A DNA stretch of 60,655 bases from an uncultured Myxococcales bacterium (GTDB lineage Bacteria; Desulfobacterota; Binatia; UBA1149; CAYXZP01). Positions 4,010-43,411 of this stretch are shown in pieces. Each line of letters opens with the position of its first letter. Within the stretch, counting starts at the first letter, position 1. The DNA is taken from assembly GCA_964469485.1 (NCBI GenBank), contig CAYXZP010000002.1:1-60655 (forward strand), in the 5' to 3' direction. A program made the position numbers and the translations under genes. The notes under the pieces were generated by a model that saw only the letters and a program-made list of their open reading frames with translations, did no database searches and had not been told where the DNA came from.

Positions 4010-7000
4010 TCAGTCTACGATGACCGGACCGGCCACGGCCGGGGTCTTGCCGCACCAGTCCACGCCCTGCGCCATGATGGGCGGACCGCTGTACTGGTTG
4101 TCGACCTGGAGGTCCTTGGGATCGTTGGTGTGGTTGCGGTTGTCGCAGAGCCTGTTCTTGAGGTCGCTCGAAGCCTCGTACTCCTTGCCCGGAATGTTCG
4201 GCACGTTCTCGCTGGGGAAGGCGGGCAGCATGATCGAGGCCCCGCCCAGCGCCGTTACCGGGTTATAGGAGCCGCTGGTGGGGTTGACGGCAATACCGCC
4301 GTAGCCCTGCTTGCTGCTCGGCGGGTTCTGTCCGCCGTTGAAGATGATCTTGTTGCCGCTTCTCAATACCAATTGGGAGTCCTTTCGCAGCAGGATACCG
4401 ACCTGTTCGTTGCTCGATATCGTTGTGTCCCTTAGGACCGCGTTGACGGCACCACCCAGTTGCAGGCCTATCGTGCAACCGGCGATCTTGGTGTTCTCGA
4501 AATAGATCGCGAAGGGACCCGAGGACAGGCCTTGCTCGAACTCGCTCGACCCACCGGACAGGGCTGACACGAGGCAGCCGCCGTGGTCGCTCTCGCCGCT
4601 GGTGGTGACGACGCTGTTCTTCACCATCACGCGTCCGCCTGCCGTGGCGCGCATCGGCTTGGCGCAATCGACCCACTGCACGCCGTCGTACTCGGCGCTC
4701 CACTCGATCGGGGCCGGGCAGGTGATCGAGCCGGCGCCGGTGGGTGACAAGGAAGCCAGGTCGCCTCCGTAGAACTGCGTGCATTTGTCGCACCCGTTCT
4801 TGAACACGGAGCTTATGACCCTGTTGCCGATGCCGCGGCCGGCGTCGGTCTTGAAACCGCTGGTCAGCGCATCGTCGCAGAGCCCGTCGAAGGTCATGTC
4901 CTCGATCGTGTTGAAGGAGCCGGTGATCTGTACGCCCTCAAAGAAATGCTTGACGGTGAGGTTGCGAATCGTGTTGTTGTTGCCCTTTAGCCGCAGGAAA
5001 CCGGCGCCGTCCTCGACCTCGGTGCAGCCGTGGCTGGTCACGTAGCTGCCGCCTAGTGACTCGGCGAAAGCCTTGCAGGCGCCTTCTTCGTGCTCGTGGA
5101 GAAGCTGCGTGTCGGAGTCGGACATCTCGATGGTGATGCCGCGGTTGGTGCCGTCGATCAGCATGCCGTTGCACAGCGTTTTGCGGACATTCTCGCTGCC
5201 CCACATCTGCGACGGATTGACGCCCGTGGTGTCGATAGGGGGGTCGTATAGATAAATGGTCTGCGGCAGGCAGTCGTTGTCCTCGTTTGCCAGGTCGGGG
5301 TCGCAGTGGAAGGTGATCGCCTGGTCGCCGTAGAAGTTCTGGTAGCCGCAGCTTGGCAGCGCGCCCTCGAAACCGCCCTCGTCGCTGTCTACGGCACAAG
5401 AGTAGGAACCGGTCAGGTTGACGCACTCGCCGCCGCTGCCCGAGCCGTCCCTCCAGCTAGGCGGGTTGTCGTCACCGCAGGTATAGCAGGTCTTGGTGCC
5501 GTTGCCGTCGTAGTCGCGGCACTCGCCCACGCATTCGCCGTTGCCCTCGCAGCGGTCGCCCTGCAGGCCCAGCGAGCAGGCATCGGCCGCGCCGTCGTTA
5601 TTGGTGTCTATGCAACGTCCGTCGGGGCTGCCGTCCCTCATGGTGCAGTCGGGGCTCGTACAGTCGGCCTCGCCTTCGATGCAGGGGCCGCAGGCGTTGG
5701 TCTGTGAGGCCAGCGTGGCCACGCACTCGTCCACGTCGATACAGTTCCGGCATTTGCCGCTCACGCACTCGCCTTGCGGACACTGGGCGTTAGACTGGCA
5801 GTTACGGTCGTTCGCATAGGCGTAATTGCGGTCGGCGGCCAGGTCGGCGTTGGCATCACCTTCGCCGCATCTGCAATCGCCTATACCGACGGCCTCTTGG
5901 TTGATGGGGCAGGCCTGGTAGACGGCGCATTCGCCGGTTCCGTCACCCTGGTTGACGCAGGGGTAGGGCACGCCGAAGGCCTGGCCGGTCGACGGCGAGG
6001 TCTCGTCCATGCAGCCATTGGCATTGTTCGGGTTGCAGGCGACAGCGCTCTCGATGCAGGTCTCTTTCTGGAGGCAGTTGAAGGAGCAGCCGTCGTAATC
6101 TTTCTCGTTGCCGTCGTCGCAGGCCTCGAGCCTGGTGCCGGGCACCGTCCCGCAGCTCACGGTATCGGCGCAGACGACGCCGTCACCGCAGCGGTTGACG
6201 GTGCACATGTTGGTGCAGGAGTCGGTGTTGACGAGGTTGCCGTCGTCGCACTCCTCTAGGGGGCTCAGCACGCCGTTTCCGCAGCCGGCCGGCTTGCAGT
6301 TGTTGTTGCAGTCATCCTCGTTGTTGCGGTTTCCGTCGTCGCAAATCTCGTTGAACTTGCTATCGACGATGCCGTCGCCGCAGTAAGGTAGCAGGCAGTT
6401 GTCGCGGCACATGTTGGGTTCGTTGCTATTGTACAGGTCGCTGGTGTCGCACTCTTCGCAAGCCACATCGACGGTGACGTCTTCGCAGCTTCCGCCCCCG
6501 GCGCAATCGATGCTGGTGTCGCAGGCCTCGGTGTTGTGCGCGCCGTTCTTGCAGGTGCCTGTGCCATCAGCGCCGACGTTGTCGCACTCGCCGTGGCCGA
6601 TGACCATAATCCCGTTGTCGTCGGGAACCTTATGCAGCTTGCAGCGGCCGTGCCTGTCGGTCTCGCAGCAATCGCGGTCGGGGTTGCAGACGTAGCCCGG
6701 GCAGTCGTCGTCGGTTTCACAGATATGCCCGTTGTTGAGACCGCCGGTGCAGGTTCTGCCGGCGTCACCGGCCGAGCCGTCGCAACGGCCGTCGTACACT
6801 CCGCCGTCACACAGACTGACCGTGGCATTGTCGTCGTCCCATAGGCAGTAGCGGGTCACATCGACGCCATCGACGAAGAGTCCGCAGCTGCCGTGGTCGC
6901 CTGTGCAGTCGTTGTCGTCGGTGCAGGCCGCGCCGGCCTGGTCGCCGCCCACGCAGAAGTTCTCATTGCCCGAGGGTTGGCATGAACCGTTGCTGCCCTG

Positions 7001-9037
7001 GCAGATGTCATCGTCGTTGCAGTAGGAGCCGGCGTTTGTACCGCCGTCACAGGTGCCGGCCTTGCAGGAGCCGCCTTCGCCGCAGTCCGTGCTGCTGCGG
7101 CATTCCTCGTTGAGCTTGTCGGCGTCGCCGACGACACAGAGCTTCACCTTGTCCGAGAAGCTCTTGTATCCAATCCAGTAACTGCCGCAGCCGCCGGCGG
7201 CCGACGCCTTTTCGCATTTACCCTTGCGCGGGCAGCTCGGGTCGTAGCAGTAGCCGCAAACATAGTCCTCGCGCTTGCCGTCCTTGAAGCAATCCTTGTC
7301 GGCATCGTTGCTGCAGTGGGAGCACTCGCGGTCGACGGTCGAGTATCCGTCGCCACAGCGCGAAGCGGCGCAACGGCGGTTGCAGCCGTCCGTGTTGTCG
7401 ATGTTGTAGGGGCCGTCGTCGCATTCCTCGCCCTCCTGGGCGTTGCCGTCTCCACAGGCGATGGGCAGGTAGAAGTCCGTGAACAGTCCGTCACCGCGGG
7501 CCGTTGCCGCAGACAGCACGCAGTCAACCAGGTCGTCGACGTACGCGCCCTGATCGTCCCAGTTGGCGGCATTACAGGAGTCTAGGCTGGCGAGCGCGGC
7601 CGCGTCGAGTTTCTTCGCGGCGCAGTTGGTCCGGATCTTCGCCGCGCTCTTGTCATAGACACCCTGGATGCGGTCGGCGCGTACGGCCGAGTTGTCCACG
7701 CAGGTCTCGCCGGTCTGGCAAGGGTTGTCGTCGTCGCATAGCGTCCGGCAGGCGCCCTTGATGCAGGTCCCGTCCCCGCAGTCCGAATCGCGCTTGCAAG
7801 CTGGATAGCAACGCCGTTCCGTGCAGTTCCAAGAGGTCTCCTTGTCGGCATCACCGTCTATGGTCAGGGCGCATTCCGCGGCGTAGTTCGGCGGGCCGCA
7901 CTTCTGCGAGTGGTCGACGCAGTGGCCCGTCTGGCACCATGGTGTCGGGTTGACGCCGCCAGCCTCTTCGTCGGCCTTGCGGCACATGCCCCGCTGCTTC
8001 ATCAAGGTCCGTATATAGCTCGACTGCGCCTTGGCGATGGCGTGATGGCATTTGCCCTCGGAACGCTTGTCGAAGACAGGTTCGCAGCTTCCCTCGGCAC
8101 CGGTCATGGGGTCGGCCTGGCAGTCGCTCGAGTTGGTGCAGGTCGAGCCGTCGTCGGCGCCGCCTACACAGAGGTCAGAGGCGCAACTGCCGTCCGCGCC
8201 GCAAGGCACCTCGCAGACCCCGCGCCGGCAGCTGCCGCCGCTGCAATCGGCGTCGGCGGTACAGGCGTTGCCATCGGCACCCCCGGCCGTGCAGCTGCCG
8301 CCGCCGTCGCAGTCGGAGTCATCGTTGCAAGGGCTGCCCGCTTCGCTGCCGCCTACGCACGAGTAACAGGCCAGCCCGTCATGTGCGCCGCCCTGGCATA
8401 TGCCGATGGCAGGGTCACCGAGCGAGGCCTGCATCATCGTCGGAACCGCGTCGAGGACCATGCAGATGAAGCACTTGTAGAGATCGTCGGTGGTGACGAT
8501 GTCCAAATTGTCGTAACGGTCCTCGAGGACCGGGCAGTGCTGTGGGATGTTGACCGGGCAGCTCTCCATGCCGAGCTGGTCGGGGAAGACGCCGCCGCAT
8601 TTGCGACCCGGTATGCCGCGCAGCAGGGACTCGCCCTTTTCTATACGGCGGACAACGTCGATGTAGACCACGTCCTGGCCGTCCTGGTCCATGTCGGTGC
8701 AATCGACCGAGGCGGGTATCTTTCCCTCGCGGCGTGCCTGGTGGCATTTGTAGATGATCTTCTCGAGGGTCTTGGCGAAACGTTCGGCGCGTTTGCCGAA
8801 GCCGGTACGGCAGCGGATCGCGTCCTGTGTGAAAGCGGCCTCAGAGGTGTCGGGCAAGGCCGCCACCGTAAACAGGGCCGCCACCGTAACCAGGGCCGCC
8901 AGGCCCATGGCCAGTAGCGCCAGGGCGGGCCGGCGGGCCGGTGCCGCGGCACTGGATCCCAGCGGGGCTCGTCGAACTGGCAGCAGGCTCTTCACGATAT
9001 GGGCACACCCCAGGACACTCGGGACCCCAGGGAACAA
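4010..9037 (-). CDS. Giant secreted cysteine-rich modular protein A (1675 aa)
   Basis: Uninterrupted ORF with signal/anchor 'RRPALALLAMGLAALVTVAALFTVAAL'. Contains Cys-bracketed helical modules, 'CGDG..E.CDDGN...D.C...C' repeats, a 'NCIDVDEC' cbEGF-like start and a C-terminal beta-helix. The start is uncertain: TTG 9037 as listed, with GTG 8995 and ATG 8908 in frame. Confidence 0.9.
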   Translation of the reverse strand: MFPGVPSVLGCAHIVKSLLPVRRAPLGSSAAAPARRPALALLAMGLAALVTVAALFTVAALPDTSEAAFTQDAIRCRTGFGKRAERFAKTLEKIIYKCHQARREGKIPASVDCTDMDQDGQDVVYIDVVRRIEKGESLLRGIPGRKCGGVFPDQLGMESCPVNIPQHCPVLEDRYDNLDIVTTDDLYKCFICMVLDAVPTMMQASLGDPAIGICQGGAHDGLACYSCVGGSEAGSPCNDDSDCDGGGSCTAGGADGNACTADADCSGGSCRRGVCEVPCGADGSCASDLCVGGADDGSTCTNSSDCQADPMTGAEGSCEPVFDKRSEGKCHHAIAKAQSSYIRTLMKQRGMCRKADEEAGGVNPTPWCQTGHCVDHSQKCGPPNYAAECALTIDGDADKETSWNCTERRCYPACKRDSDCGDGTCIKGACRTLCDDDNPCQTGETCVDNSAVRADRIQGVYDKSAAKIRTNCAAKKLDAAALASLDSCNAANWDDQGAYVDDLVDCVLSAATARGDGLFTDFYLPIACGDGNAQEGEECDDGPYNIDNTDGCNRRCAASRCGDGYSTVDRECSHCSNDADKDCFKDGKREDYVCGYCYDPSCPRKGKCEKASAAGGCGSYWIGYKSFSDKVKLCVVGDADKLNEECRSSTDCGEGGSCKAGTCDGGTNAGSYCNDDDICQGSNGSCQPSGNENFCVGGDQAGAACTDDNDCTGDHGSCGLFVDGVDVTRYCLWDDDNATVSLCDGGVYDGRCDGSAGDAGRTCTGGLNNGHICETDDDCPGYVCNPDRDCCETDRHGRCKLHKVPDDNGIMVIGHGECDNVGADGTGTCKNGAHNTEACDTSIDCAGGGSCEDVTVDVACEECDTSDLYNSNEPNMCRDNCLLPYCGDGIVDSKFNEICDDGNRNNEDDCNNNCKPAGCGNGVLSPLEECDDGNLVNTDSCTNMCTVNRCGDGVVCADTVSCGTVPGTRLEACDDGNEKDYDGCSFNCLQKETCIESAVACNPNNANGCMDETSPSTGQAFGVPYPCVNQGDGTGECAVYQACPINQEAVGIGDCRCGEGDANADLAADRNYAYANDRNCQSNAQCPQGECVSGKCRNCIDVDECVATLASQTNACGPCIEGEADCTSPDCTMRDGSPDGRCIDTNNDGAADACSLGLQGDRCEGNGECVGECRDYDGNGTKTCYTCGDDNPPSWRDGSGSGGECVNLTGSYSCAVDSDEGGFEGALPSCGYQNFYGDQAITFHCDPDLANEDNDCLPQTIYLYDPPIDTTGVNPSQMWGSENVRKTLCNGMLIDGTNRGITIEMSDSDTQLLHEHEEGACKAFAESLGGSYVTSHGCTEVEDGAGFLRLKGNNNTIRNLTVKHFFEGVQITGSFNTIEDMTFDGLCDDALTSGFKTDAGRGIGNRVISSVFKNGCDKCTQFYGGDLASLSPTGAGSITCPAPIEWSAEYDGVQWVDCAKPMRATAGGRVMVKNSVVTTSGESDHGGCLVSALSGGSSEFEQGLSSGPFAIYFENTKIAGCTIGLQLGGAVNAVLRDTTISSNEQVGILLRKDSQLVLRSGNKIIFNGGQNPPSSKQGYGGIAVNPTSGSYNPVTALGGASIMLPAFPSENVPNIPGKEYEASSDLKNRLCDNRNHTNDPKDLQVDNQYSGPPIMAQGVDWCGKTPAVAGPVIVD
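4013..5230 (-). other. C-terminal right-handed parallel beta-helix (pectin-lyase-fold-like) region of protein A
   Basis: Turn-like periodic segments such as 'NNNTIRNLTVKHFFEGVQITGSFNTIEDMTFDG', 'GNRVISSVFKNG', 'RVMVKNSVVTTSG', 'IYFENTKIAGC', 'AVLRDTTISSNEQVGILL'. Boundaries are approximate. Confidence 0.5.
6074..6382 (-). repeat. Three tandem Myxococcus-type cysteine-rich repeats in protein A
   Basis: 'CGDGIVDSKFNEICDDGNRNNEDDCNNNC', 'CGNGVLSPLEECDDGNLVNTDSCTNMC', 'CGDGVV...LEACDDGNEKDYDGCSFNC'. Confidence 0.8.
7322..7456 (-). repeat. Myxococcus-type cysteine-rich repeat(s) in protein A
   Basis: 'CGDGNAQEGEECDDGPYNIDNTDGCNRRCAASRCGDGYSTVDREC'. Confidence 0.7.
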
Positions 9038-9119: not shown

Positions 9120-9138
9120 CACCCCCTTTTGGGGGGTG
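9120..9138. promoter_or_regulatory. GC hairpin CACCCCC-TTTTG-GGGGGTG in the A/B divergent intergenic region
   Basis: 7-bp perfect stem read directly. It lies between two divergent start codons, so it is not a terminator. A similar C-run/TTTT/G-run element sits at 39231-39248 upstream of protein D. Confidence 0.4.
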
Positions 9139-9353: not shown

Positions 9354-11201
9354 ATGCTGCGAGCGGCCCTCATAGGAGCCCTCGTCTGGGCCGTGACGAT
9401 TGTTGCGGCGGCAAGCGCGCACGCGACCTTCAGTCGCGAACAGGTGATCTGCCGGGCGGCGGTCGCGCGTTCGGCCGCGAAGTTTGCCCAGCGAGCGGCC
9501 AATCACACGGCCAAGTGCCACAGCAGGCGCGACCGGCACAGATCCAAGGCCAGCGACCGGGCGGATTGTAACACCCTGGCCTACGGCGCGACAGAGCGGC
9601 TCGGCAAGGTCGAAGCGAAGCTGCGCTCCACCATAGCTACCCGTTGCAGCGCCAGGGCCGGCAACCAATGCGATCCTACGGCCATGAACTATCGGGAATG
9701 CCCGGGGATCTGCGGTGCGACGATCGCGACCATCGGGGATCTTACCGACTGTGTCGTCTGTCTGGTCACGGACTCGGTCGAGGAGATGTCCGATCTTACC
9801 CAGGGCAGTCCGGTCATAGGCCGCTGTAATGGCGGCGAGTACGACGGGCTCCCTTGTTATTCCTGCACGGGTGGCGCGGAGCCGGGCACCGCTTGCAACA
9901 CGGCGGCTGATTGCGAACTCGACGTTTGCGTCGAGGACCTTGGCGCAGGCGACGGCAATGGCGATGGTCTTTGCAACCTCGACGAGACCTGCCACTGCGA
10001 ACAGGATCCCTTGCTTCTGTGTAGCGCCACAAGCGCCACGCTATGCGAAAATGTGGAATGCACGGCCGGAGGCAAAGACGGCCTGGCGTGCAGTAAGGAC
10101 GACGATTGCCAGGCCCCCGGCAGCAGTCCGCCCCCGAGCGGGAGTTGCCACGACAGTGTGTGCAGGCTGCCTTGCGCTTCGAACAACGCTCAGACCGCCA
10201 AGTGCCACTACACTTTCTGTGAGGGCGGTAGCAACGATGGCGGTTTCTGCTCTGCTTATGGCAGATGCCCGGACCCAGGCGTTTGCACGCCGATCTTGGA
10301 GCGAACCTTGCGTAGCTGTCGTGCGGTGGTCGGCAAGAAACAGGCGCAGCACCTTGGCGTGCTGCTCAAGGAGCGTGTCAAGTGCCAGGCCGCCGAGGAG
10401 TTTGCCGGCGCCACCGACACCGACTGGTGTGCGTTGGTCAATCCGCAGAACAAGGTCGGCAAGATACGCGCCAAGGGTGAGCGCAGCGTGAGGAGGCGCT
10501 GTGGGTCGGGGCAGGCGCCGGAAACGCCCGCGAACTGTGCTTGCGAGACCGGTTCGCTCGATGGTTACAGTGGCATCGACGACGCGGACTGTCTCGCTTA
10601 CTGCGTCTTCGAGGAGTCGGATGCCGCCGGTTCCGGCCTCTTCGAGACCTTCTACTCCTTGGTGGTCACTTGCGGGGATGGTTACCAGGCCCCGGACGAG
10701 GAATGTGACGACGGCAACCTCATCGACGGCGACGGCTGCGACTCGAACTGCACCCCGACGGCCTGCGGCAATGCGGTCGTTACCGCCGGCGAGGCATGTG
10801 ACGACGGTAACCTCAGTGACGGTGACGGCTGCGACTCGAATTGCACCCTGCCCGCCACCACGACCACCACCACCCTGCCGGCCTCATGGACGCAGGTCCG
10901 GCAGATCCTCGAGCCGAGTTGCAGCGGCTGCCACGGTGCTGTGGCAATAGGGCCGGACAACAACTTGACCGGACTGCACGGGGCCGACGGCGGTTATCAG
11001 ATCTTGGTCGATGGCCTCTCGACCTGCGCCGGCGATCCCATGCTGGTCACGCCGGGCGATCCCGCAGCCAGCTTCCTGTACAACAAGGTGGCGGGGGCGG
11101 CACCGGCCTGTGGTGTGCAGATGCCGATGGGCCTCTCACTCGGCAGCGGGCAGGTCGAGACGATCCGTTCCTGGATCGCCGGCGGCGCGCTCGATGACTG
11201 A
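9354..11201 (+). CDS. Secreted cysteine-rich modular protein B (615 aa) ending in a PSCyt1-like CxxCH domain
   Basis: Signal peptide 'MLRAALIGALVWAVTIVAAASAHA'. Two helical Cys modules, two Myxococcus-type repeats, a Thr linker 'PATTTTTTLPA', then a C-terminal CSGCH domain. Divergent from paralogue A. Confidence 0.9.
   Translation: MLRAALIGALVWAVTIVAAASAHATFSREQVICRAAVARSAAKFAQRAANHTAKCHSRRDRHRSKASDRADCNTLAYGATERLGKVEAKLRSTIATRCSARAGNQCDPTAMNYRECPGICGATIATIGDLTDCVVCLVTDSVEEMSDLTQGSPVIGRCNGGEYDGLPCYSCTGGAEPGTACNTAADCELDVCVEDLGAGDGNGDGLCNLDETCHCEQDPLLLCSATSATLCENVECTAGGKDGLACSKDDDCQAPGSSPPPSGSCHDSVCRLPCASNNAQTAKCHYTFCEGGSNDGGFCSAYGRCPDPGVCTPILERTLRSCRAVVGKKQAQHLGVLLKERVKCQAAEEFAGATDTDWCALVNPQNKVGKIRAKGERSVRRRCGSGQAPETPANCACETGSLDGYSGIDDADCLAYCVFEESDAAGSGLFETFYSLVVTCGDGYQAPDEECDDGNLIDGDGCDSNCTPTACGNAVVTAGEACDDGNLSDGDGCDSNCTLPATTTTTTLPASWTQVRQILEPSCSGCHGAVAIGPDNNLTGLHGADGGYQILVDGLSTCAGDPMLVTPGDPAASFLYNKVAGAAPACGVQMPMGLSLGSGQVETIRSWIAGGALDD
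10671..10844 (+). repeat. Two tandem Myxococcus-type cysteine-rich repeats in protein B
   Basis: 'CGDGYQAPDEECDDGNLIDGDGCDSNC' and 'CGNAVVTAGEACDDGNLSDGDGCDSNC'. The DNA copies 10704-10755 and 10797-10848 differ at about 5 of 52 positions (period 93 nt). Confidence 0.85.
10887..11198 (+). other. Planctomycete-cytochrome-c-like (PSCyt1-type) domain with heme motif CSGCH
   Basis: 'WTQVRQILEPSCSGCHG...LVTPGDPAASFLYNKV...MPMG..LSLGSGQVETIRSWIAGGA' follows the PSCyt1 pattern (CxxCH ... pG.p..S.L ... MP ... WI..GA). CSGCH is at 10920-10934. Confidence 0.65.
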
Positions 11202-11204
11202 GCT

Positions 11205-20648: not shown

Positions 20649-22538
20649 ATGAAGGCCCTCACCACGCTGCTGCTCTTACTTGTCTGCCTGGGCTCGCCCG
20701 TGGCCGTCGCGGCCGGCTCGACCGACGTGGCCGCGGCCGATGATCTCTGCCTCTCCACCGACGACCCCTGTATCGTCAACGACACCTATACGGTCTTGGA
20801 CGGCAGTACCCTCGACTTCGGCAGCAGGCAGCTGCGCATCTCCAGCGGCGGTCAACTCGACATAGGCGCGGGCACGGTGACCATACTGTGCGGGGGCTTG
20901 CTCGTCGACAGTACCAATGGTGTGGCCATCAAGGCCAGCGGCGATGATTTCAGCGGCGGCGAGCTTACCGTGCGGGCCAGCCGCACCTGCGAAAACGACG
21001 ACACTCAGACCTGTCTCGAGCACGTCGAATGCACCGGCGACTGCACCGGCGGGGACGGCACCATATCCCTGGGGGCCAAGATCACGGGCAGCAACGAGGA
21101 GATGCCGGCCACAATCACGCTATATGCTGCCGGCGACATCACCATCGACAAGAAGATCACACTTGCCGGGACCACATCCGATTCGGACGGAGGCGAGCTC
21201 GACATCGAATCCTATCTCGGCTCCGTCACCATCAGCGCCGTCATCGACGTGACCTCGGGCGGGGATTCCACCGGCGGCGAGGTCACCATAACCGCCAGCG
21301 ACGATGTCACGGTTGGCAGTGAGATCGACGCGTCGGGGGGGGATTTCGGCGGCGGCGAGGTCACCATAACGGCGGATGATGATGTGAACATCAGCGCCGA
21401 CATCAACGTCAGTTCGAGCACCGGTGGAGGCGATGGGGGCAGCTTGACGGTGACCGCGGGCGGCGACATATCCATGAGTTCGTCGGGCTCCGGCAACATC
21501 GTTGTCCAGGCCAACGGCAATACATCGAGTGACAATTTTTCCGGAGACGGCGGCTGGCTTACCTTCACGGCAAGCGGCGACATGGCGATTGCGTCGACCG
21601 CTCGCTTGCGTACCAACGGTCCGGCGCCCGACGGGGGCGGGGGCATGGTCGAGCTCACGGCATCGGGCGACATCTCCGTGGCCGGAAGGGTCACTGCGCT
21701 CGGCAAAGGGAATAGCGGTTATGGCGGAGACGTCGACATCGCCGCGCAAGGGTCGATAAGCGTCTTGAGTACCGGCGAGATAGACGCCACGGGCAAGGGT
21801 AGTGCCGGGACCATCGGGCTGCTGGCAACGGGGGCCATAGATTTTGCCGGTGAGGCCGATGCGTCCTCGTCGAGCACCGGGTTGGGCGGCGCCATCAGTC
21901 TGACGGCCGGTACCAGCATAGAGCTTTCCGGCGACCTCCTCGTCGACGGCAGTCCCTCGGGAACCACCAATGGCACCACCGACCTGTCGGCCTGCGATGT
22001 CACGCTGGCTTCGGGTGCGTTGATCGATAACGAGGGCTCCTACGGCAAGAACAGTATAACCGCCGCCGATTCGATCACGGCAGCCTCGGGCTCGGAGGTG
22101 TTCGCAGACAGCAGCAGCGGCACGAACCTGTTCACATACGGTGCCCCCGGCAACACGCCTTCGCTGCTCGGCACCGTAAGCCCCGCCGCTTCGCTGGTGC
22201 TGAGCGACACTCTGATCAGCTGCAGCACCGAGGCGCCCGCCACCACCACAACCACCACAACGACCAGCGAGTCTACGACGACGACTATCAGTTCGGGCGG
22301 GGAGTGCGGGGATGTGACGGGCGATAGCCAAGTAATGGTCGGGGATGCACTCGCCATCCTCAAGGCGGCCGTCGGCATCACGGTAACCATAGTCTGTGAT
22401 GAAGACCAGGTGGGTTATTGCGGGGATGTGACCGGCGACTGCGATATAACGGTCTCCGATGCGCTGGCCATCCTCAAGACGGCGGTCGGCATCACGGTAA
22501 CCATGGACTGCACCGTGACCTGCCCCGCTGGCACCTAA
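20649..22538 (+). CDS. Secreted beta-helix-repeat protein F with a Thr linker and C-terminal dockerin-like pair
   Basis: ATG 20649 gives signal peptide 'MKALTTLLLLLVCLGSPVAVAAG'. About 20 degenerate repeats of the type 'GGEVTITASDDVTVGSEIDASGG'. The N-terminal head is homologous to that of 22947-27059. Confidence 0.85.
   Translation: MKALTTLLLLLVCLGSPVAVAAGSTDVAAADDLCLSTDDPCIVNDTYTVLDGSTLDFGSRQLRISSGGQLDIGAGTVTILCGGLLVDSTNGVAIKASGDDFSGGELTVRASRTCENDDTQTCLEHVECTGDCTGGDGTISLGAKITGSNEEMPATITLYAAGDITIDKKITLAGTTSDSDGGELDIESYLGSVTISAVIDVTSGGDSTGGEVTITASDDVTVGSEIDASGGDFGGGEVTITADDDVNISADINVSSSTGGGDGGSLTVTAGGDISMSSSGSGNIVVQANGNTSSDNFSGDGGWLTFTASGDMAIASTARLRTNGPAPDGGGGMVELTASGDISVAGRVTALGKGNSGYGGDVDIAAQGSISVLSTGEIDATGKGSAGTIGLLATGAIDFAGEADASSSSTGLGGAISLTAGTSIELSGDLLVDGSPSGTTNGTTDLSACDVTLASGALIDNEGSYGKNSITAADSITAASGSEVFADSSSGTNLFTYGAPGNTPSLLGTVSPAASLVLSDTLISCSTEAPATTTTTTTTSESTTTTISSGGECGDVTGDSQVMVGDALAILKAAVGITVTIVCDEDQVGYCGDVTGDCDITVSDALAILKTAVGITVTMDCTVTCPAGT
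22305..22511 (+). other. Two Cys-bracketed dockerin-like repeats (protein F)
   Basis: 'CGDVTGDSQVMVGDALAILKAAVGITVTIVC' (22305-22397) and 'CGDVTGDCDITVSDALAILKTAVGITVTMDC' (22419-22511). Each has an EF-hand-like loop plus a helix, as in dockerin type I. Confidence 0.6.
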
Positions 22539-29756: not shown

Positions 29757-29831
29757 TCAGGACCGAAAATGCCCCCTTTTTGGCCTCTCTAGCAAGCGTC
29801 CTAGGCTCTTAGTCGCGGTAGACTAGGGCTT

Positions 29832-31937
29832 GTGCGAAGGATTGCACGCAGTTGTGCGCTACTGGGGTTTCTTTCGATGGTCTCGCTGGCCGCTGCGGCC
29901 CCGGCCGCGGCCTGGACCTTTTACGAGGGCAAGTGCCGCGCCGAGATCTCCAAGACCCTGGCCAAGTACAGCTCCACCCAGTTCAAGAACATCGGAAAAT
30001 GTCACCGCCTGCGTAACAGGCGCCAGCTTCCGGAGGCGTGGGACTGCAACGACCCAGCAACCGCCGACCGTGAAGGTAAGGGCGAGCGAGCTGCTATAAG
30101 ACTCCGCAGGGCTATAGGGGGCACTGCCGACCGCTGCCATCACAAGATCAGCGGGGAGTCCTTCGACACCGTCCTGGCCAACTTCACGCGTTGCCCCTCA
30201 CCGGCTGCCGAGACCGATGATGGCGGCGCGACCACGGGCATCGACAGCTTCGCCGAGCTGGCCGACTGCCTACTTGCACTCGGCGACGGTCTAGTCTCGC
30301 AGCTTGGCGGGAGCCTGCTCGGTACGCCAGTGCCGACGGAGGCTCGTCCGGGGGCCCGGCGCTGTCATTGGATGATCGCCAAGATGACAGGGAAATACCT
30401 CAACACCGTGCAGCACGTACGCGGCCGAGCGCAAGCGAAGGCGGATCGCTCGGGGGTGCACGAGGTGTACGGTCAGGTCGGGGCCGACCTTAACCGGAAG
30501 ATCAACAAGGCCGAAGCAAAGCTCGCCGGTGCCATATACAAGAAATGCGGGCGCTTCCCGCTGGAGGACCTCGACGACATCCAGTCCTGCGCCGACGACA
30601 GCGAGGGGCTTGCCGAGTGCGTGGTCGAGATAGCCCGGCGCAGCGGCCGCGGTCTGGCCGCGCTCGGGTTCGAGCTGCCCGAGCACTGCCCTAGCCGGGC
30701 CCTCCTGACGGCGCGGGCCGGAATCGGCGATGAGATCACGGCCACCCGCCTCGACGTCGGCTTCACGGGCCTGGCCCACGGCATGGACATCATGGACGGC
30801 ATTGTAAGCGCGGTTAGCCTCGACTGTGACCCCGACTGCGGCGATTGTGAGGTGAGCCAGGACCCACTCCGAAACCTTCCGACCGGTTTCTGTCGTTGCG
30901 AAGCGAACCCCACGGTTAAGTGCGACGTGATAGCCGGCCCCGACGCCGACGATTGCGGGGGCGGGATGTGCCGCTGCATGTTCGGGCCACCGCTGGCCAT
31001 CGCTGCCGGGGGTGTTCCTGTCTGTGTGGTCAACGAGCTTCAGGGCGACCTGGAGGGAACGGCCGATGCCGGGACCGGGGAGGCCACGGTCTCGGTGGGC
31101 CTGCGCTCGAAGGTGCACCTCGGCATCGCTGGGCTGCAGCCATGTCCCATCTGCGAGGGGGATGGTGTCATCAACGACGGCATGGACGGCGGTGTCTGCA
31201 ATGGAGGGCCGCGCGACGGGCTCCCCTGTGACGCGAACGCCACCGATCTGACCTTCGGCGCCGTCAGCTACGAGTGCCTGCCCGAACCCGGCAGCGGGGT
31301 CACCGGCAGCGGACTGGTGCTGTCGATGACGATGACCAGTGACGTTTCATCATTGCCCTTCGGCACGACCTGCGATGCGCCGGCCGACACGATGCAGTGT
31401 GCCTGCGCGGTATGCTCGGGCGACAGTTCGCTTGCCTGCAACGACGACGAGACATGCAAGGAGGTCGAGGCCGGCGACTGCACGAGCAGCGGGGGCGGCG
31501 CCGTTCGCTTTCCCAACCAGTGCGGTGACGGGGTCTGTCTCGATCAGGGCAACGGCAATGGTGAGTGTGGTGCTGCCGGTCCGGTCGAGAACTACTGCGA
31601 CAACATGCTGCGCGCTAACGGTCGGGGCCTTCTCGCTTGCCAGACCGACGAGGATTGCCTGACTTACGCCTCCCAGTGTCCCGATGGCGACTGCGGGGTC
31701 TGCAGCATCGCCGAACCGCGCGCCTGCTTCCTCGATCCCATTACGGCAAGTGGCGGGGCAACCCCCGATCGCGCCGACATGGTTACGACCTTTTGCGTGC
31801 CGCCGACAGCTAGTGCCGCTGTCAACAGCGTGTTGGGACTTCCGGGCGCGGCTCGCTTCAAGGTGAGTTTCGACGTCGAGGGACAGTGCGCCAACGGCGC
31901 GCCCTTCGATAAGCCCGGCGGCTCCAACTGCATGTAG
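29832..31937 (+). CDS. Secreted cysteine-rich protein E (701 aa): two helical Cys modules plus module X
   Basis: GTG start. Signal peptide 'MRRIARSCALLGFLSMVSLAAAAPAAA'. The N-half has 'CRAEISKTLAKYSSTQFKNIGKC'-type modules and the C-half is module X. Confidence 0.9.
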   Translation: MRRIARSCALLGFLSMVSLAAAAPAAAWTFYEGKCRAEISKTLAKYSSTQFKNIGKCHRLRNRRQLPEAWDCNDPATADREGKGERAAIRLRRAIGGTADRCHHKISGESFDTVLANFTRCPSPAAETDDGGATTGIDSFAELADCLLALGDGLVSQLGGSLLGTPVPTEARPGARRCHWMIAKMTGKYLNTVQHVRGRAQAKADRSGVHEVYGQVGADLNRKINKAEAKLAGAIYKKCGRFPLEDLDDIQSCADDSEGLAECVVEIARRSGRGLAALGFELPEHCPSRALLTARAGIGDEITATRLDVGFTGLAHGMDIMDGIVSAVSLDCDPDCGDCEVSQDPLRNLPTGFCRCEANPTVKCDVIAGPDADDCGGGMCRCMFGPPLAIAAGGVPVCVVNELQGDLEGTADAGTGEATVSVGLRSKVHLGIAGLQPCPICEGDGVINDGMDGGVCNGGPRDGLPCDANATDLTFGAVSYECLPEPGSGVTGSGLVLSMTMTSDVSSLPFGTTCDAPADTMQCACAVCSGDSSLACNDDETCKEVEAGDCTSSGGGAVRFPNQCGDGVCLDQGNGNGECGAAGPVENYCDNMLRANGRGLLACQTDEDCLTYASQCPDGDCGVCSIAEPRACFLDPITASGGATPDRADMVTTFCVPPTASAAVNSVLGLPGAARFKVSFDVEGQCANGAPFDKPGGSNCM
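30681..31934 (+). other. Module X, copy in protein E (36 Cys in about 418 aa by my count)
   Basis: 'CRCMFGPPLAIAAGGVPVCVVNELQGDLEGT', 'QPCPICEGDG', 'FCVPPTASAAVNSVLGLPGA'. Confidence 0.75.
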
Positions 31938-32012
31938 AAAGCCGCTCCGCGGCTTCATCACGCCACCGTTCTACTGCTATGCTCGGCCGGCTATTTCTTG
32001 GACCACTCGAGC

Positions 32013-38006: not shown

Positions 38007-38007
38007 C

Positions 38008-39168: not shown

Positions 39169-39279
39169 TTCAAGGGTTTGCCTGGCTACCCGCTGTGGGG
39201 GCCGCAGTCAAAGGGCCCGGGGCTCACCGCACCCCCCATTTTGGGGGTCTAAGTACCGGTTTTTCCTAGGAATCTTTCG

Positions 39280-39376: not shown

Positions 39377-42300
39377 ATGGAACGCGTGCGTTTCGCGGTA
39401 GGTACAATATCGCTCACGCTACTTTTGTCGGCGGTCCCGTACGGCCTGCCGACCGCTGCCGTCGCTCAGGCCACAGAGGAACCCGACGCCCCGCTCTCGG
39501 AGTCGGCGTACAGCTGCCAACAGGCCCTCATGCGCGTGTCGCACCGCTACCTGACGCGCAACCTCAAGATCCGTCATAGGTGCCGTGCCAGGGCGTCCGC
39601 GGCGGCCGCCTGCCTGACCGGGCTCGGCGACGACAAGACGGCCAAGGCCATCGCCAAGCTGCGCGAGCGCGTAGATACCGCCGTGCTCCGCAAGTGCCGC
39701 AACGTCAACCTGAACGACCTTTATTTCCCCGGCCCCTGTGACCTGATCACGACCGGCACCTGTCATATCGACCAGTGCACCGACAGCTACCGAGAATGCC
39801 GGGACACGCTCGAGTCCGGAGATGCGGTCGCTCCGCCGGATTGTGCGGCCGGCCAGTGCATCGAGCGCAACATGTACGTGGGGTGCACGACCCACGCCGA
39901 CTGCCGCGGCGAGGCGGGGACCTGCAAGACCCCCGGCCAGGTTTGTGAAGGCGGTCCCTTTGCCGGGCGGACCTGCCAGGCCGACGCCGACTGCGCCAGC
40001 AGCGCCGAGTGTAAAGACAAGACGGTCGGGGTTTTCGATGTTACGGACCTGAGCACCTGTTTCAAAAGCCTGCTCGACACCAACAGCGAGATCCTTCTCG
40101 ACCAAGAGTATCCCGCCGATTCGTCGACCGGGGCCACGGCGAGAGCGCGCCAGGGCAGAAAAGGCAAGACGAAAAAGAAGGGTTGTGTCGAACGCGCGGC
40201 CACGGCCGCTTCCAGGATGGTGTTGCGCGAACTGCGCACGCGTCAACGCTGCCTGTCCGACGAACGCGCACCCGACACCGGTGAAGAGGCTGCCGATGCC
40301 GGTGAGGATACAGCAGAAGAAGCAACCGGCTGTCGCAAGAACGTGGTCCCCTACGGTCCGGGAACGGGCAACACCCGCGCCGATGCTATCATCGTGCAGG
40401 CCTATGTTCGGCTGTTGTTGCTCGTGCCCTCGGTCTGCGAAGATTCGGACCTTGCCGGCAAGACCTACACCAGTTTCGATCCCACGGGAGCCCCCTTCGA
40501 TGTTTACGACCTGCGCCAGTTCCTGTTCGACACCCACCGTTCCCTCAACCGTGACCTATTGAGCGTTGCCTTTCCCCCGAAGCCGGTATGCGGCGACGGC
40601 GAGCTGCAAGGCTGGGTCGAGGAATGCGACGACGGCAACATATTCAGCGACGACACTTGTCTCCCGAACTGCGCGGCCGCGCGTTGCGGTGACGACCAGG
40701 TCTGCTCGCACACGAGTTGCGAGAGCGGGCCTTCGAGCGGGGCCGAAGAATGCGACGACGGCGCATTGAACTCAGACACGGTCTCTGATGCCTGCCGGAC
40801 CGATTGCGCGAGCCCATTTTGTGGCGACGGGGTGGTTGACTCCGGCGCGGGCGAGGCCTGTGACAGCGGGGCCGCCAACTCGGATACGGCTGCGGATGCC
40901 TGTCGTACGACCTGCGCGCTGGCGACCTGCGGAGACGGGGTCGTCGATAGCAGCGAAGCCTGCGACATTGGCCGCCAGTGCCGGGATGCCGACGGGGTGC
41001 CCGGCTCGCTGTGTACGACCGACGACGACTGCGCGGCCGGCCAGACCTGCGAACCCGGCGGCGAGTCCGCGACATGCGATAGCGACTGCACGCTTGCCCT
41101 CGACCGGGCCCCCGCCGAGGTCAGCGTGACGGGCAGCGGCGTATTCAACTCCATTACTCTGACTTGGGACCTCTCCGTGGTCGGCAAGGCGGCGGCCGTT
41201 GTGGCCGAAGATAAGGACGGGAATCCTGTCTGTGCCGTGTCGACCCAACTGGCAGCGCAAGGCTGCTTGTACAGCCTGGGGAACTACCTGTCGGGAAGCG
41301 AGCTTACGGCCACCGTGGACGGCTGTGATATTGCCCTCGATGAGGCGGCGCCCTTAGTTCTGTTCACCTGTCTTACCGTGGTCGGCGAGGCCGGCGCGGA
41401 GCCCGGTGGCGATGTCACCGTGGACGATGTGGTGTGCAGCGAAGACGGCTGTGGCGAGACCGCCGCCGACATCACCGTGAGCATGGAGGTGTTGGAGGCG
41501 GACTCCTGTGGTGACGGCACCGTCAACTACGCACGTGGCGAAGCATGCGACGATGGCAACCTGTCCGACAATGACGCTTGCCTGAGCGATTGCGCGCTCG
41601 CCCATTGCGGCGACGGCCATGTGTGTAGTGACGGTGCCTGTTCACCCGCAGAGGGCGGACCGGGGGAGGAACTCTGCGATGACGGCAACGACGACGAGGA
41701 GGACGGTTGCCTGAGCACCTGCCGTACGGTCGCGTGCGGGAACGGGACGGTGGACCCGGGGGAAGACTGCGATGACGGCAACACGGTCGAAAGCGATGCT
41801 TGCCTCAACAACTGCATGGAGGCCGCTTGCGGTGACGGGATCATTTACGCGGGCGTGGAGGAGTGCGACGGTGAGAGCGTAGGTGACTGTGAGTTCTGTT
41901 CGGACCAATGCCGTTGTTTCATCGGCAGGGGCTGTCCCGGCTCCGGCGAACTGACGCTGTATGCGGGCACCGGTGTTTCCTGCGCCGGCGACCAGGACTG
42001 CTTTGACTTCTATGGCGAGCAGTACCCCGGCTCTTGCAACCCCGAGCTCAGCCGTTGTACGACCAAGACGCTGCTCACCACGGGTTCCACCGGTATCGCC
42101 CACGGTGCCGATCTGACCGACAACATTTCCTTGAAGGGGCGGCTACAGTGCCCGGACGCGGCCCCCTGCGGTGATTGCGCCGTAATCGGGCTGATGGCCG
42201 ATAATCCGGACGAAGGCGAGCAGGGCGGCCGGTATTGTCGCTGCGCCGCCGACAACCGCCAATACTGCGATGTGCCGCTGGACTCCGACCCCGATGCTTG

Positions 42301-43411
42301 CGGAGGCTATGAGGACGATTTCTGCAACTGCTACCTAGGCCCGCCCTTGTCTTTCTCGGCCGGCAACACGCCGGCCTGCGTGGTCAACCGCATTGCCCAA
42401 GACACCAAGGGTACGGCGTGGGTGGACGAGGGCAGGGGCGAGGTCGAGGCGCACCTCCGTTCGGTCGCGCATCTTGGCGAGGGTCTTACCGAACCCTGCC
42501 CGTATTGCGTCGGAGATGTGACGCCTTCTGACGGACTGCGTGACGGTGTCTGCAGGAAGGGGGCCAACCAGGGAGAGACATGCGACGGTTGGGGCGTGAA
42601 CACATCCTTCCCCGGCCCCTATGGCATAGCGACTTCCTGCATCGGGGGTCCCAAGGACGGGGACGGTTGCATGATAGACAGCAATTGCGACGAAGAAGGT
42701 GGCGATGGCCTCGGCGTCTGCGGCAACCCCGTGCCCGCTTACCCGAGTCTCGACTGCATGCCTTCAGCCGGCAAGAACGTCAGCGGAGAGGGTCTGCAGA
42801 TCGATCTCATCCAACGCACCGAACGCGTAGAACTGGCTGCCTCGCTAGCGTGCGGGTTCCCGTTCTTCGGGCATAACTGCCACTGCCGTCAATGCACGGG
42901 AGACAGCACCGTACCCTGCAGCGATGATTCGATGTGTGAGGAGGTCGGAGGGACCTGCAGCAGCCTCGGGAGCGGCACGAACGTCGGACCAAATGGGTGC
43001 GACGGCTACCTGTGCTCGGACGTCGATGGCCAAGGAACAGTAGGTGAGTGCACCACCGGCCCCGACTCTAGGTTCTGTGACGGTATGCTGAAGTCCAGCG
43101 GCGATCCGTTCGTAGCCTGTCAGGCCGATGCCGATTGCTCCATAAGCGTGATCGGCTTCGATGCCGGTTCCTGCACCATGGTCAAGAGGCGCTCATGTTT
43201 TCTCGACCCGATAGTGGCGGTCGGCGAAGCGTCGACCACGGCGCCGCTCGGTGCGGCCATCTTCTGCATACCGCCGACCGGCAATGCCGGCATCAACGGT
43301 GTGGCCGGACTCCCGGGCGTGGGGCGGGCGATGAACCACGCCTCCGGCAAACTGTTTTGCGCCAGCGACCCGGGCAAACGCTATGAGCCGGGCCTGGGCG
43401 GCTGCGACTGA
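39377..43411 (+). CDS. Giant secreted cysteine-rich modular protein D (~1344 aa)
   Basis: Possible starts are TTG 39368 (listed), ATG 39377 and GTG 39386; the GTG has GAGGA 8 nt upstream. Signal 'RFAVGTISLTLLLSAVPYGLPTAAVAQA'. Modules in order: helical Cys modules, 4 Cys-rich repeats, cohesin-like module, 4 Cys-rich repeats, module X. Confidence 0.9.
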   Translation: MERVRFAVGTISLTLLLSAVPYGLPTAAVAQATEEPDAPLSESAYSCQQALMRVSHRYLTRNLKIRHRCRARASAAAACLTGLGDDKTAKAIAKLRERVDTAVLRKCRNVNLNDLYFPGPCDLITTGTCHIDQCTDSYRECRDTLESGDAVAPPDCAAGQCIERNMYVGCTTHADCRGEAGTCKTPGQVCEGGPFAGRTCQADADCASSAECKDKTVGVFDVTDLSTCFKSLLDTNSEILLDQEYPADSSTGATARARQGRKGKTKKKGCVERAATAASRMVLRELRTRQRCLSDERAPDTGEEAADAGEDTAEEATGCRKNVVPYGPGTGNTRADAIIVQAYVRLLLLVPSVCEDSDLAGKTYTSFDPTGAPFDVYDLRQFLFDTHRSLNRDLLSVAFPPKPVCGDGELQGWVEECDDGNIFSDDTCLPNCAAARCGDDQVCSHTSCESGPSSGAEECDDGALNSDTVSDACRTDCASPFCGDGVVDSGAGEACDSGAANSDTAADACRTTCALATCGDGVVDSSEACDIGRQCRDADGVPGSLCTTDDDCAAGQTCEPGGESATCDSDCTLALDRAPAEVSVTGSGVFNSITLTWDLSVVGKAAAVVAEDKDGNPVCAVSTQLAAQGCLYSLGNYLSGSELTATVDGCDIALDEAAPLVLFTCLTVVGEAGAEPGGDVTVDDVVCSEDGCGETAADITVSMEVLEADSCGDGTVNYARGEACDDGNLSDNDACLSDCALAHCGDGHVCSDGACSPAEGGPGEELCDDGNDDEEDGCLSTCRTVACGNGTVDPGEDCDDGNTVESDACLNNCMEAACGDGIIYAGVEECDGESVGDCEFCSDQCRCFIGRGCPGSGELTLYAGTGVSCAGDQDCFDFYGEQYPGSCNPELSRCTTKTLLTTGSTGIAHGADLTDNISLKGRLQCPDAAPCGDCAVIGLMADNPDEGEQGGRYCRCAADNRQYCDVPLDSDPDACGGYEDDFCNCYLGPPLSFSAGNTPACVVNRIAQDTKGTAWVDEGRGEVEAHLRSVAHLGEGLTEPCPYCVGDVTPSDGLRDGVCRKGANQGETCDGWGVNTSFPGPYGIATSCIGGPKDGDGCMIDSNCDEEGGDGLGVCGNPVPAYPSLDCMPSAGKNVSGEGLQIDLIQRTERVELAASLACGFPFFGHNCHCRQCTGDSTVPCSDDSMCEEVGGTCSSLGSGTNVGPNGCDGYLCSDVDGQGTVGECTTGPDSRFCDGMLKSSGDPFVACQADADCSISVIGFDAGSCTMVKRRSCFLDPIVAVGEASTTAPLGAAIFCIPPTGNAGINGVAGLPGVGRAMNHASGKLFCASDPGKRYEPGLGGCD
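40589..40981 (+). repeat. First block of about 4 Myxococcus-type cysteine-rich repeats in protein D
   Basis: 'CGDGELQGWVEECDDGNIFSDDTCLPNC', 'CGDDQV...AEECDDGALNSDTVSDACRTDC', 'CGDGVVDSGAGEACDSGAANSDTAADACRTTC', 'CGDGVVDSSEACD'. Confidence 0.8.
41107..41500 (+). other. Cohesin-like beta-sandwich module (tentative), protein D
   Basis: 'VSVTGSGVFNSITLTWDL...LVLFTCLTVVGEAG...ITVSMEVLE'. Alignable in outline with 26478-26846. Confidence 0.35.
41506..41915 (+). repeat. Second block of about 4 Myxococcus-type cysteine-rich repeats in protein D
   Basis: 'CGDGTVNYARGEACDDGNLSDNDACLSDC', 'CGDGHV...ELCDDGNDDEEDGCLSTC', 'CGNGTVDPGEDCDDGNTVESDACLNNC', 'CGDGIIYAGVEECDG'. Confidence 0.8.
41927..43408 (+). 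other. Module X, copy in protein D (with an internal insertion)
   Basis: 'CNCYLGPPLSFSAGNTPACVVNRIAQDTKGT', 'EPCPYCVGDV', 'LDCMPSAGKNVSGEGLQIDL', 'FCIPPTGNAGINGVAGLPGV'. Extra segment 'IATSCIGGPKDGDGCMIDSNCDEEGGDGLGVCG'. Confidence 0.75.

Follow-up and report, generated by a model that had tools for sequence, protein, structure and literature searches.

We report that six genes in a 60,655-nucleotide stretch of DNA from an uncultured Myxococcales bacterium, placed among the Binatia in the GTDB (GenBank assembly GCA_964469485.1, contig CAYXZP010000002.1, positions 1 to 60,655; the whole stretch is referred to as the window), encode cysteine-rich proteins with Sec-type signals that share and reshuffle one set of modules. 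On balance, we favour the reading that these genes, named A, B, F, C, E and D in the order of their coordinates (Table 1), belong to a superfamily expanded in Binatota and encode mosaic extracytoplasmic proteins with individual binding or adhesion roles, and not the parts of one apparatus. Mosaic cysteine-rich secreted proteins, DUF4215 repeats, non-cellulosomal dockerins and beta-solenoid adhesins are already known kinds; new are two of the modules, the H-H pair and the X domain, which constitute large unannotated families expanded in Binatota. Members of the Binatota occur widely in soil, the deep sea and sponges but have not been cultured, and to our knowledge no description exists of their cell surface. 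A search of the literature on Binatia/Binatota for cysteine-rich or secreted proteins gave nothing relevant.

The six open reading frames (ORFs) sum to 19,020 nt, corresponding to 31.4% of the window. This confirms an earlier note, made by a model from the letters of the sequence, which had placed six giant genes at these positions and estimated their share to approximately 19 kb and 31%. The Cys content varies between 2.5 and 8.5%, to be compared with a mean of 0.73% across the 31 other proteins encoded in the window; A, D and E have even Cys counts, and all six proteins are acidic as computed from their translations. The GC content at third codon positions (0.76-0.84) is the same as in neighbouring genes and hence the six genes are native to the source genome. 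As read from the translations, all six N-termini have a hydrophobic core between a basic n-region and a cleavage site of the A-x-A type, in keeping with the Sec-type signals assigned before, and none of them has a lipobox; in the AlphaFold2 (AF2) models of E and F these N-terminal stretches have a low predicted local distance difference test score (pLDDT) or form an isolated helix. For E, a proper signal peptide is obtained only from the GTG at 29832, and the public gene calls, which put the start 15 codons downstream (29832-29876 region), truncate it. The start of A is ambiguous (TTG at 9037, GTG at about 8995 or ATG at 8908), and its hydrophobic stretch of approximately 24 residues may act as a signal anchor instead of being cleaved as a signal peptide. 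Models for PEP-CTERM, type IX secretion system (T9SS), autotransporter and LPXTG signals in Pfam and NCBIfam had no match in any of the six at E≤0.01, as the earlier note had anticipated. Thr/Ser-rich linkers are present at 24831-25004 and 26346-26477 (C), 22227-22298 (F) and 10854-10868 (B), and reach up to approximately 58 residues in C; long linkers of this type are typical of extracellular, often O-glycosylated proteins. In two related loci (L007 and L008; L and P numbers are our handles for loci and proteins) genes for PMT-family glycosyltransferases adjoin family members.

Module sharing was analysed using all-vs-all BLASTP, module-specific hidden Markov models (HMMs) and profile-profile alignment with hhalign, and Pfam and NCBIfam were scanned with the whole proteins and with ten excised segments; the word-indexed homology searches had limited sensitivity. 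The H-H pair (H1 and H2) is common to A, B, D and E, the X domain to C, D and E, a beta-solenoid (BH) together with dockerin-like pairs (Doc2) to F and C, and DUF4215/TIGR02232 repeats (M) to A, B, C and D, with E-values for shared modules spanning 1e-126 to 1e-8 across the six proteins. Specifically, BLASTP aligned A44-368 with B1-359 (E 8e-35), C22-544 with F19-525 (3e-87; BH), C1300-1370 with F551-622 (9e-16, 55% identity; dockerin-like pairs), C725-1116 with E303-688 (2e-69, 40% identity; X), D896-1317 with E303-675 (4e-60; X) and C532-1129 with D696-1343 (1e-126), while the X profile matched D at 2.5e-153. In hhalign, the H-H pair of A/B aligned with the E family (probability 98.5%, E 1.6e-15), as did the N-terminus of D (94.9%, E 4.6e-8, 247 columns), where H-H is detectable only by a deeper profile. 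H1 of A matched the E-family profile with a probability of 93.8%, B matched the H-H HMM at aa 6-154 and 315-434, and H1 and H2 are mutually related (cross-matches with probabilities of 79% and 60%). The TIGR02232 model (cut-off 20.8 bits) scored 42 bits in A, 52.4 in B and 40.1 in D, and C was slightly under the cut-off with 20.2. Searching the rest of the window with the module HMMs gave no further H-H or X members.

The six proteins form two sub-families. Members of the H-H class (A, B, D and E) have two Cys-stapled N-terminal helical bundles and DUF4215 spacers followed by a "head": D and E have X in this place, A a beta-helix and B a putative haem-c-type domain. The BH class (F and C) starts with a beta-solenoid of approximately 500 aa, continues through Thr-rich linkers, X being present or absent, and has a dockerin-like Ca2+-binding pair at its C-terminus. 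Following the signal peptide, A reads H1, a Cys-rich insert, H2 split by a second Cys-rich insert, M, a Cys-rich region, three M, a Cys-rich region and a right-handed beta-helix; B reads H1, a Cys-rich insert, H2, two M, a Thr linker and a cytochrome-c-like CxxCH module; and D reads H1 with a Cys-rich insert, H2, four M, an orphan module (aa 573-706), three to four M and X (aa 853-1344). E consists of H1 (aa 28-168), H2 (aa 172-284) and X (aa 285-701), an order (H-H-X) that is the commonest in the family. In the other class, F has BH (aa 23-526), a Thr linker and a dockerin-like pair (aa 551-622), and C has BH, M, a Cys-rich region, a Thr/Ser linker, X, a Thr-rich linker, an orphan module and a dockerin-like pair. 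Module shuffling together with local duplication (A/B and F/C) generate the diversity of the six proteins.

The module set had been proposed in the earlier note, and BLASTP, HMMs and hhalign reproduce its boundaries. The maps drawn there for E (H-H-X, with helical and beta-rich parts in the model and X shared with C and D) and F (BH-Doc2, with a confidently modelled solenoid and a dockerin-like pair related to that of C) are retained as they were; the other four stand in part. In A the M, M3 and beta-helix modules were recovered, but the third "H" is the second half of the split H2, and the "EGF-like" region (aa 990-1250) gave no Pfam family at E≤10, its resemblance being a mere D-V-D-E-C motif. 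For B the H-H-M2 part holds and the proposed terminal PSCyt1 does not; for C (BH-M-X-Doc2) and D (H-H, M and X) the map holds except for the module that was called cohesin-like (see below).

Table 1. Positions of the six genes, their modules and associated elements in the window.
Feature	Position	Strand	Description	Basis
Gene A	4010..9037	(-)	1675 aa, 8.5% Cys	ORF + translation; orthologues P0239 (83% identity) and P0240 (75% identity)
Gene B	9354..11201	(+)	615 aa, 8.3% Cys	ORF + translation
Gene F	20649..22538	(+)	629 aa, 2.5% Cys	ORF; 64%-identical orthologue in L022
Gene C	22947..27059	(+)	1370 aa, 4.7% Cys	ORF; orthologue P0024, 68% identity
Gene E	29832..31937	(+)	701 aa, 6.7% Cys	ORF; full-length orthologues at 33-77% identity
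Gene D	39377..43411	(+)	1344 aa, 8.3% Cys	ORF; 50%-identical orthologue in L002
H1 and H2 of A	7463..8842	(-)	H1 (aa 66-211), Cys-rich insert, H2 (aa 326-362 + 456-525)	hhalign vs E-family profiles, BLASTP to B
C-terminal right-handed beta-helix of A	4013..5287	(-)	aa 1251-1675	Beta_helix PF13229 31 bits vs cut-off 25.9; NosD 20.2 bits
C-terminal, putatively mono-haem cytochrome-c-like module of B	10869..11198	(+)	aa 506-615	CSGCH, conserved Q-M-P
X domain of C	25014..26333	(+)	aa 690-1129	X profile 3.2e-156
Orphan module of C, formerly "cohesin-like"	26478..26834	(+)	aa 1178-1296	no Pfam match at E≤10
Dockerin-like pair of C	26844..27056	(+)	aa 1300-1370	two Cys-bracketed Ca-loop + helix segments
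Orphan module of D, formerly "cohesin-like"	41093..41494	(+)	aa 573-706	only in D's own orthologue
Small ORF	22557..22847	(+)	96 aa; N-terminal transmembrane helix, basic Pro/Lys/Ala-rich middle	conserved C-terminal motif LPKTFPMDDTTRSRQLVKPK
CCCCCTTTTGGGGGG element	9122..9136	(+)	A/B divergent intergenic region	
CCCCCTTTTTGG element	29772..29783	(+)	60 nt upstream of E	
CCCCCCATTTTGGGGG element	39232..39247	(+)	130-144 nt upstream of D	
LolA-like gene	31998-32894	(+)	adjoins E	PF17131 111 bits
MMPL/RND gene	32891-35299	(-)	near E	MMPL 100.9 bits

The X domain is approximately 420 aa long and has 27 Cys that are conserved at ≥90% across 119 divergent X domains. In these domains 62 columns are conserved at ≥85%, ten of which are other than Cys, Gly or Pro (H316, R355, D371, S479, D481, N562, D590, D608, F633 and N665 in E numbering), and H316, R355, S479 and D481 (window ~30777-31274) are kept in 87-97% of the copies. 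The AF2 model of E, based on a multiple sequence alignment (MSA) of 20 sequences, has a pLDDT of 82 and a predicted template-modelling score of 0.74; residues 30-278 are all helical and form two bundles, and residues 289-685 are beta-rich with approximately 25 strands. The check by AlphaFold and Foldseek that the earlier note had suggested thus gave folds for E and F (for F, see below) and, at E≤0.001, no fold matches: the top matches of the E model in PDB and BFVD, all beyond this threshold, were generic helical bundles on the H part. The H-H-X sequence profile had no match in PDB at E≤10, neither the whole proteins nor the excised segments revealed a Pfam, NCBIfam or PDB relative of H-H and X, and A, B, C and D used as sequence queries against PDB gave no meaningful match. 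One way to read X is as an enzyme domain of a new, disulfide-stabilised kind, for example a hydrolase or lyase that attacks an extracellular polymer, with targeting provided by the other modules. No other module is as conserved or as widespread, the four residues above are kept in most copies, and Thr-rich linkers together with dockerin-like tails are reminiscent of secreted enzymes that degrade polysaccharides; nevertheless, the conservation is mostly Cys, Gly and Pro, and X is unlike any enzyme in Pfam, NCBIfam and PDB in sequence as well as in fold, and we hold a catalytic X to be improbable. Also for the six proteins as a whole, no catalytic domain was recognisable in Pfam or NCBIfam besides the beta-helix of A, which agrees with what had been noted from the translations.

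An exhaustive search with the X profile returned 1,432, 905 and 436 representative clusters at E≤1e-3, 1e-10 and 1e-30, respectively. H-H-X proteins of approximately 700 aa make up about half of the top 150 matches, and other orders in the X family are M(n)-X, BH-M-X, Doc2-X, X-Cyt and X-Doc2. The named clusters are mostly from Binatia metagenome-assembled genomes (MAGs), and cluster members of ten X-family representatives carried no informative names; moreover, all 17 genome loci recovered with a 7-sequence alignment are from MAGs labelled Binatia, UBP10 or "Deltaproteobacteria/Myxococcales", many of them from the deep sea. Among 39 long X members, DUF4215 is fused to X in 16, and Cohesin, Lcl_C, Beta_helix, Chlam_PMP, Dicty_CTDC and NosD in one each. 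Considering relatives with X or BH together, the fusion partners are DUF4215, Dicty_CTDC, disintegrin, dockerin, Lcl_C, Chlam_PMP and cohesin, with two-partner secretion (TPS) domains in the weakest matches, and these partners are of an extracellular adhesion or matrix type. DUF4215 repeats have also been found in a diatom adhesive-trail protein (bioRxiv 10.1101/2023.03.06.531300). As in other proteins with DUF4215/TIGR02232 repeats, the relatives are secreted and acidic and repeats are present in A, B and D (borderline in C), but here the repeats are mere spacers, and most of the conserved sequence belongs to H-H and X. Because of the Thr-rich linkers, the dockerin-like tails and the adhesin-type fusion partners, the proteins are likely to be located at the surface or outside the cell, and by analogy adhesion or binding outside the cytoplasm would be their most likely role.

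The solenoid of the BH class is consistent with such a role. In the AF2 model of F (42-sequence MSA), aa 30-525 form regular three-strand coils with pLDDT >95, and the best Foldseek matches (E 0.006 or worse) are beta-helical adhesins and phage tailspikes; the list includes region IV of the Marinomonas ice-binding adhesin MpIBP (probability 1.0, TM-score 0.46), the TPS domains of HMW1 and EtpA, and the Ag43, TibA and EspP passengers. These matches point to a shared architecture and do not demonstrate homology. BH-M proteins of 750-960 aa are common and often end in dockerin-like pairs, although they are merely named "cysteine-rich repeat protein" (JGI), and the weakest sequence relatives of BH carry the TPS domain PF05860. 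The predicted solenoid of F and C is thus like that of beta-solenoid adhesins such as TpsA/FHA-type proteins, autotransporter passengers and the Marinomonas adhesin, but, unlike these, F and C lack a TPS domain (PF05860) and an autotransporter domain in Pfam, a beta-barrel translocator, and RTX or type I secretion system signals.

The earlier note had combined the six proteins into one self-assembling extracellular apparatus, with cohesins in C and D, dockerins in C and F, AraC control and export by MMPL/LolA-like proteins. The dockerin-like pairs of C and F are real. As read from the translations, they have canonical D-x-[NT]-x-D...D Ca-binding loops, and Dockerin_1 (PF00404) matches aa 1295-1370 of C with 35.4 bits (cut-off 22.9) and F, under the cut-off, with 19.3 bits; the pair of C matches PDB dockerins weakly (E about 0.1), and the dockerin part of the F model is of low confidence (pLDDT 30-57), with an MSA that is probably misaligned there. 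Cohesins are used somewhere in the superfamily, since the distant metagenomic family member P0201 (1709 aa; H-H-X-M...Lcl_C...Cohesin x2, Dicty_CTDC) has a genuine double cohesin (PF00963, E 8e-17) fused to H-H-X-M, and the orphan module of C contains a faint cohesin-like motif of 16 residues (pairwise E 0.039). However, no PF00963 cohesin was detectable in any ORF of the window. The orphan modules of C (aa 1178-1300) and D (aa 570-710) have no Pfam match even at E≤10, are unrelated to each other (E 0.36), and in jackhmmer searches against all collected proteins and loci retrieved themselves or an orthologue only. PDB matches of the C module at E≤10 include no cohesin, and hhalign against the true cohesins of P0201 gave probabilities of 1.4% (C module) and 0.3% (D module). 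Other than a near-identical fragment, no homologue of the C module was retrieved, and the module is missing from the orthologue P0024, which reads BH-M-X-Doc2; a chimeric query made of the A beta-helix and both orphan modules likewise retrieved orthologues only. From these sequences, cohesin-dockerin pairing is conceivable somewhere in the superfamily and unsupported in the window. Compared to the cellulosome, C and F likewise end in a duplicated segment of approximately 22 residues with a Ca-loop and a helix; they differ in that each segment is Cys-bracketed and in that relatives also carry the pair N-terminally, and the window is without cohesin, scaffoldin, SLH anchor and glycoside hydrolase cargo.

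The gene order bears on the same proposal. The six genes are found in four sub-loci (A/B divergent; F-small ORF-C; E; D), between which 17 unrelated genes on both strands are interspersed. These encode a sulfotransferase, an SDR, two ACADs, an OYE-type reductase, a fatty-acid hydroxylase, PEMT, GH84, a tadA-like deaminase, two AraC regulators, a LolA-like protein, MMPL, a Lon N-domain protein, a sulfatase, HAD and a CoA-transferase. Co-localisation is preserved only among close, collinear relatives (L002, L021, L022 and L023), with the orders E-LolA-MMPL-Lon N-domain protein-sulfatase-HAD-CoA-transferase-D in L002, AraC-E-LolA-MMPL in L021 (also in L024 and L025), PEMT-GH84-F-small ORF-C in L022 and A-Na/H exchanger-MMPL in L023. 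In three distant Binatia genomes (L018-L020) a single H-H-X gene is found in one conserved housekeeping block (dapF, DHDPS, dapB, HPPK, transaldolase, histidine kinase, Cob_adeno_trans, Lactamase_B, H-H-X, ADH and 3HCDH), and marine MAGs have tandem arrays of two to three H-H-X genes. The synteny that the earlier note had suggested to check hence extends to close collinear relatives but not to distant Binatia. The conserved AraC-E-LolA-MMPL adjacency and an upstream element common to A/B, E and D (see below) would fit a joint apparatus; on the other hand, homologues of MMPL, LolA-like or AraC genes were not found within 10 kb of family members in 18 other non-collinear loci. Moreover, we know of no case where LolA-like/DUF1329 and RND/MMPL sets export large folded proteins. 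The sets of the RND superfamily handle small hydrophobic molecules, and by analogy the MMPL/LolA-like pair is therefore unlikely to export disulfide-rich proteins of 600-1,700 aa; described cases concern monoterpene efflux and the use of fatty esters (PMC6394551; bioRxiv 10.1101/2020.07.04.188060). In view of the four sub-loci, the unrelated genes between them and distant orthologues that are single or in tandem, the claim of one coherent system with cohesin-dockerin self-assembly and dedicated exporters was not upheld, and we regard such an apparatus as quite unlikely.

The same neighbours allow another explanation, namely that H-H-X proteins are periplasmic or outer-membrane accessories that bring hydrophobic substrates (lipids, hydrocarbons or esters) into or out of the cell together with DUF1302/DUF1329/RND proteins and beta-oxidation. 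The LolA-like and MMPL genes beside E, in the window and in close relatives, match the periplasmic and inner-membrane parts of AmeABCD in Castellaniella and PP_0765/0766 in P. putida (PMC6394551), and a second MMPL gene is located 2 kb from A. H-H-X genes lie directly 3' of a gene for a DUF1302 outer-membrane protein in L007 (938-11233), L008 (604-14303) and L011 (3-13528), which share the order Doc2-protein/FadB/PMT-like/DUF1302/H-H-X with one to three H-H-X genes per locus (the PMT-family glycosyltransferase is absent in L011), and adjoin ADH and 3-hydroxyacyl-CoA dehydrogenase genes in L018-L020. The Doc2-protein in this arrangement has a signal peptide and an N-terminal dockerin pair. However, the association with hydrophobic transport is clade-specific and involves different components each time, there is no DUF1302 gene in the window, and adjacency counts for little in loci where genes for lipid metabolism are this frequent. 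The likeness to DUF1302/DUF1329/RND sets is furthermore one of neighbouring genes and not of the six proteins, and by Foldseek and PDB profile searches H-H and X resemble no lipid-binding fold. A role in hydrophobic transport therefore seems doubtful to us, and the preferred reading remains that of individual binding or adhesion proteins.

With respect to the heads of A and B, the beta-helix of A was scored as an isolated segment (aa 1250-1675; Table 1), and a distant homologue of A (P0241) likewise carries PF13229. The CxxCH and Q-M-P of the B module are conserved in an alignment with an ORF in L001 and with P0005 (three homologues in all). In profile searches of PDB the module matched class I cytochromes c alone and weakly (E 0.017-0.7, with c-552 at 0.017). 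Pfam at E≤10 gives Cytochrome_CBB3 alone (E 0.094) and no match to PSCyt1 (PF07635). The CxxCH, the downstream Met-Pro and the length are like those of class I cytochromes c and the planctomycete PSCyt1 domain, but the module is under the cut-off for every cytochrome model. It also terminates two H-H-X proteins (L001 6461-8860 and P0005), in one of which C-x4-CH replaces CxxCH.

An element of the form CCCCC-N0-1-TTTT-N0-1-GG has three copies in the window, both strands considered, compared to 0.07 expected, and none of 100 shuffled sequences reached three. All three copies are located in divergent intergenic regions upstream of H-H genes (A/B, E and D; Table 1) and none precedes F or C; only the copies at A/B and D take the strict C5-T4-G5 hairpin form. 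The copy CCCCCCATTTTGGGGG is positioned approximately 35 nt upstream of a conserved promoter-like site, TTGACA-N18-CATACT, before D. In the D region of L002 the stem is retained with an altered loop (CCCCCCATATAGGGGG) and the -35/-10-like hexamers are conserved, while in L021 the motif is kept before the E orthologue, and C-run/G-run hairpins of a similar kind flank H-H-X genes in L001, L005 and L009. Folded as RNA, the C5-T4-G5 elements form hairpins with z-scores between -0.05 and -2.0, which is no support for a structured RNA, and a protein-binding DNA site would be as likely as an RNA element. Judged from the sequence, the H-H genes may be under one regulator that acts through this shared upstream element, which is the best evidence for a possible coordinated control, although for four of the six genes alone. 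Scanning 20.4-32.1 kb for promoters and terminators gave sites no more numerous than in shuffled sequences.

The small ORF between F and C begins 19 nt past the stop of F and ends 100 nt before C. It has no Pfam match, and its orthologue in L022 has the same position (75% identity, 2.6e-38). Because of this spacing and the conserved position, our data suggest that F, the small ORF and C may constitute one transcription unit. It is a long shot that the H-H genes A, B, D and E would constitute a regulon under the CCCCC-TTTT-GG element and that their products, the BH dockerin proteins, the 96-aa membrane protein and cohesin-bearing relatives of the P0201 type together would form a Ca2+-dependent, non-cellulosomal surface scaffold in which X would represent a new disulfide-knotted beta fold.

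In terms of mechanism, the mosaic proteins would be exported by Sec, given the signal peptides read from the sequence, and then be folded oxidatively in the periplasm, as suggested by the 27 conserved Cys of X and the even Cys counts in A, D and E. They would subsequently be released to, or retained at, the cell surface, where the beta-solenoid, X and the repeats may bind ligands or surfaces and the dockerin-like pairs may provide a Ca2+-dependent tether to a partner; for binding and tether we rely on the domain fusions seen elsewhere. Several points weigh against this interpretation. The adhesion role would be guilt by fusion for H-H, X and DUF4215, a secretion system is not visible in the window, and we only infer export past the periplasm. 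The cytochrome-c-type fusions (B, the L001 ORF and P0005) fit poorly with a purely adhesive role, and the non-structural residues H316, R355, S479 and D481 in X could mark an active site. Moreover, a single-copy H-H-X gene in a housekeeping block could equally mean a core envelope or periplasmic role, and the presence of six members within 40 kb together with the shared motif may mean more coordination than expected for independent paralogues.

Other features of the surroundings were observed in addition. The tadA-like gene at 27101-27499 (+), directly 3' of C, encodes a CMP/dCMP-type deaminase (MafB19-deam/dCMP_cyt_deam_1) and adds another housekeeping gene to those interspersed among the six. 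D-like (M-X) genes adjoin genes for Band7-Band7-histidine kinase-substrate-binding protein both in the window (39377-50978) and in L013 (1-11367), a distant Binatia MAG with two D-like genes, and the Band7 proteins are 58-60% identical between the two; the D-like and Band7 genes are convergent and consequently not co-transcribed. DUF1501 is usually paired with PSCyt/DUF1549/DUF1553 proteins, and a DUF1501 gene is present at the window edge, at 59378-60535 (-); any such partner of it would be encoded beyond the window. The GH84, sulfotransferase and sulfatase neighbours were considered as modifiers of the giant proteins and dropped; GH84 and the sulfotransferase are without signal peptides.

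Finally, the H-H pair and the X domain are absent from public profile libraries and solved structures, and no fewer than 436 sequence clusters are defined by X alone. Neither the MMPL/LolA-like neighbours nor the "cohesin" modules are to be read as parts of a secretion and assembly machine; the X domain of E and the putative haem module of B are targets for studying attachment to particles or hosts. Defining H-H and X would annotate many metagenome proteins that are now called "hypothetical".

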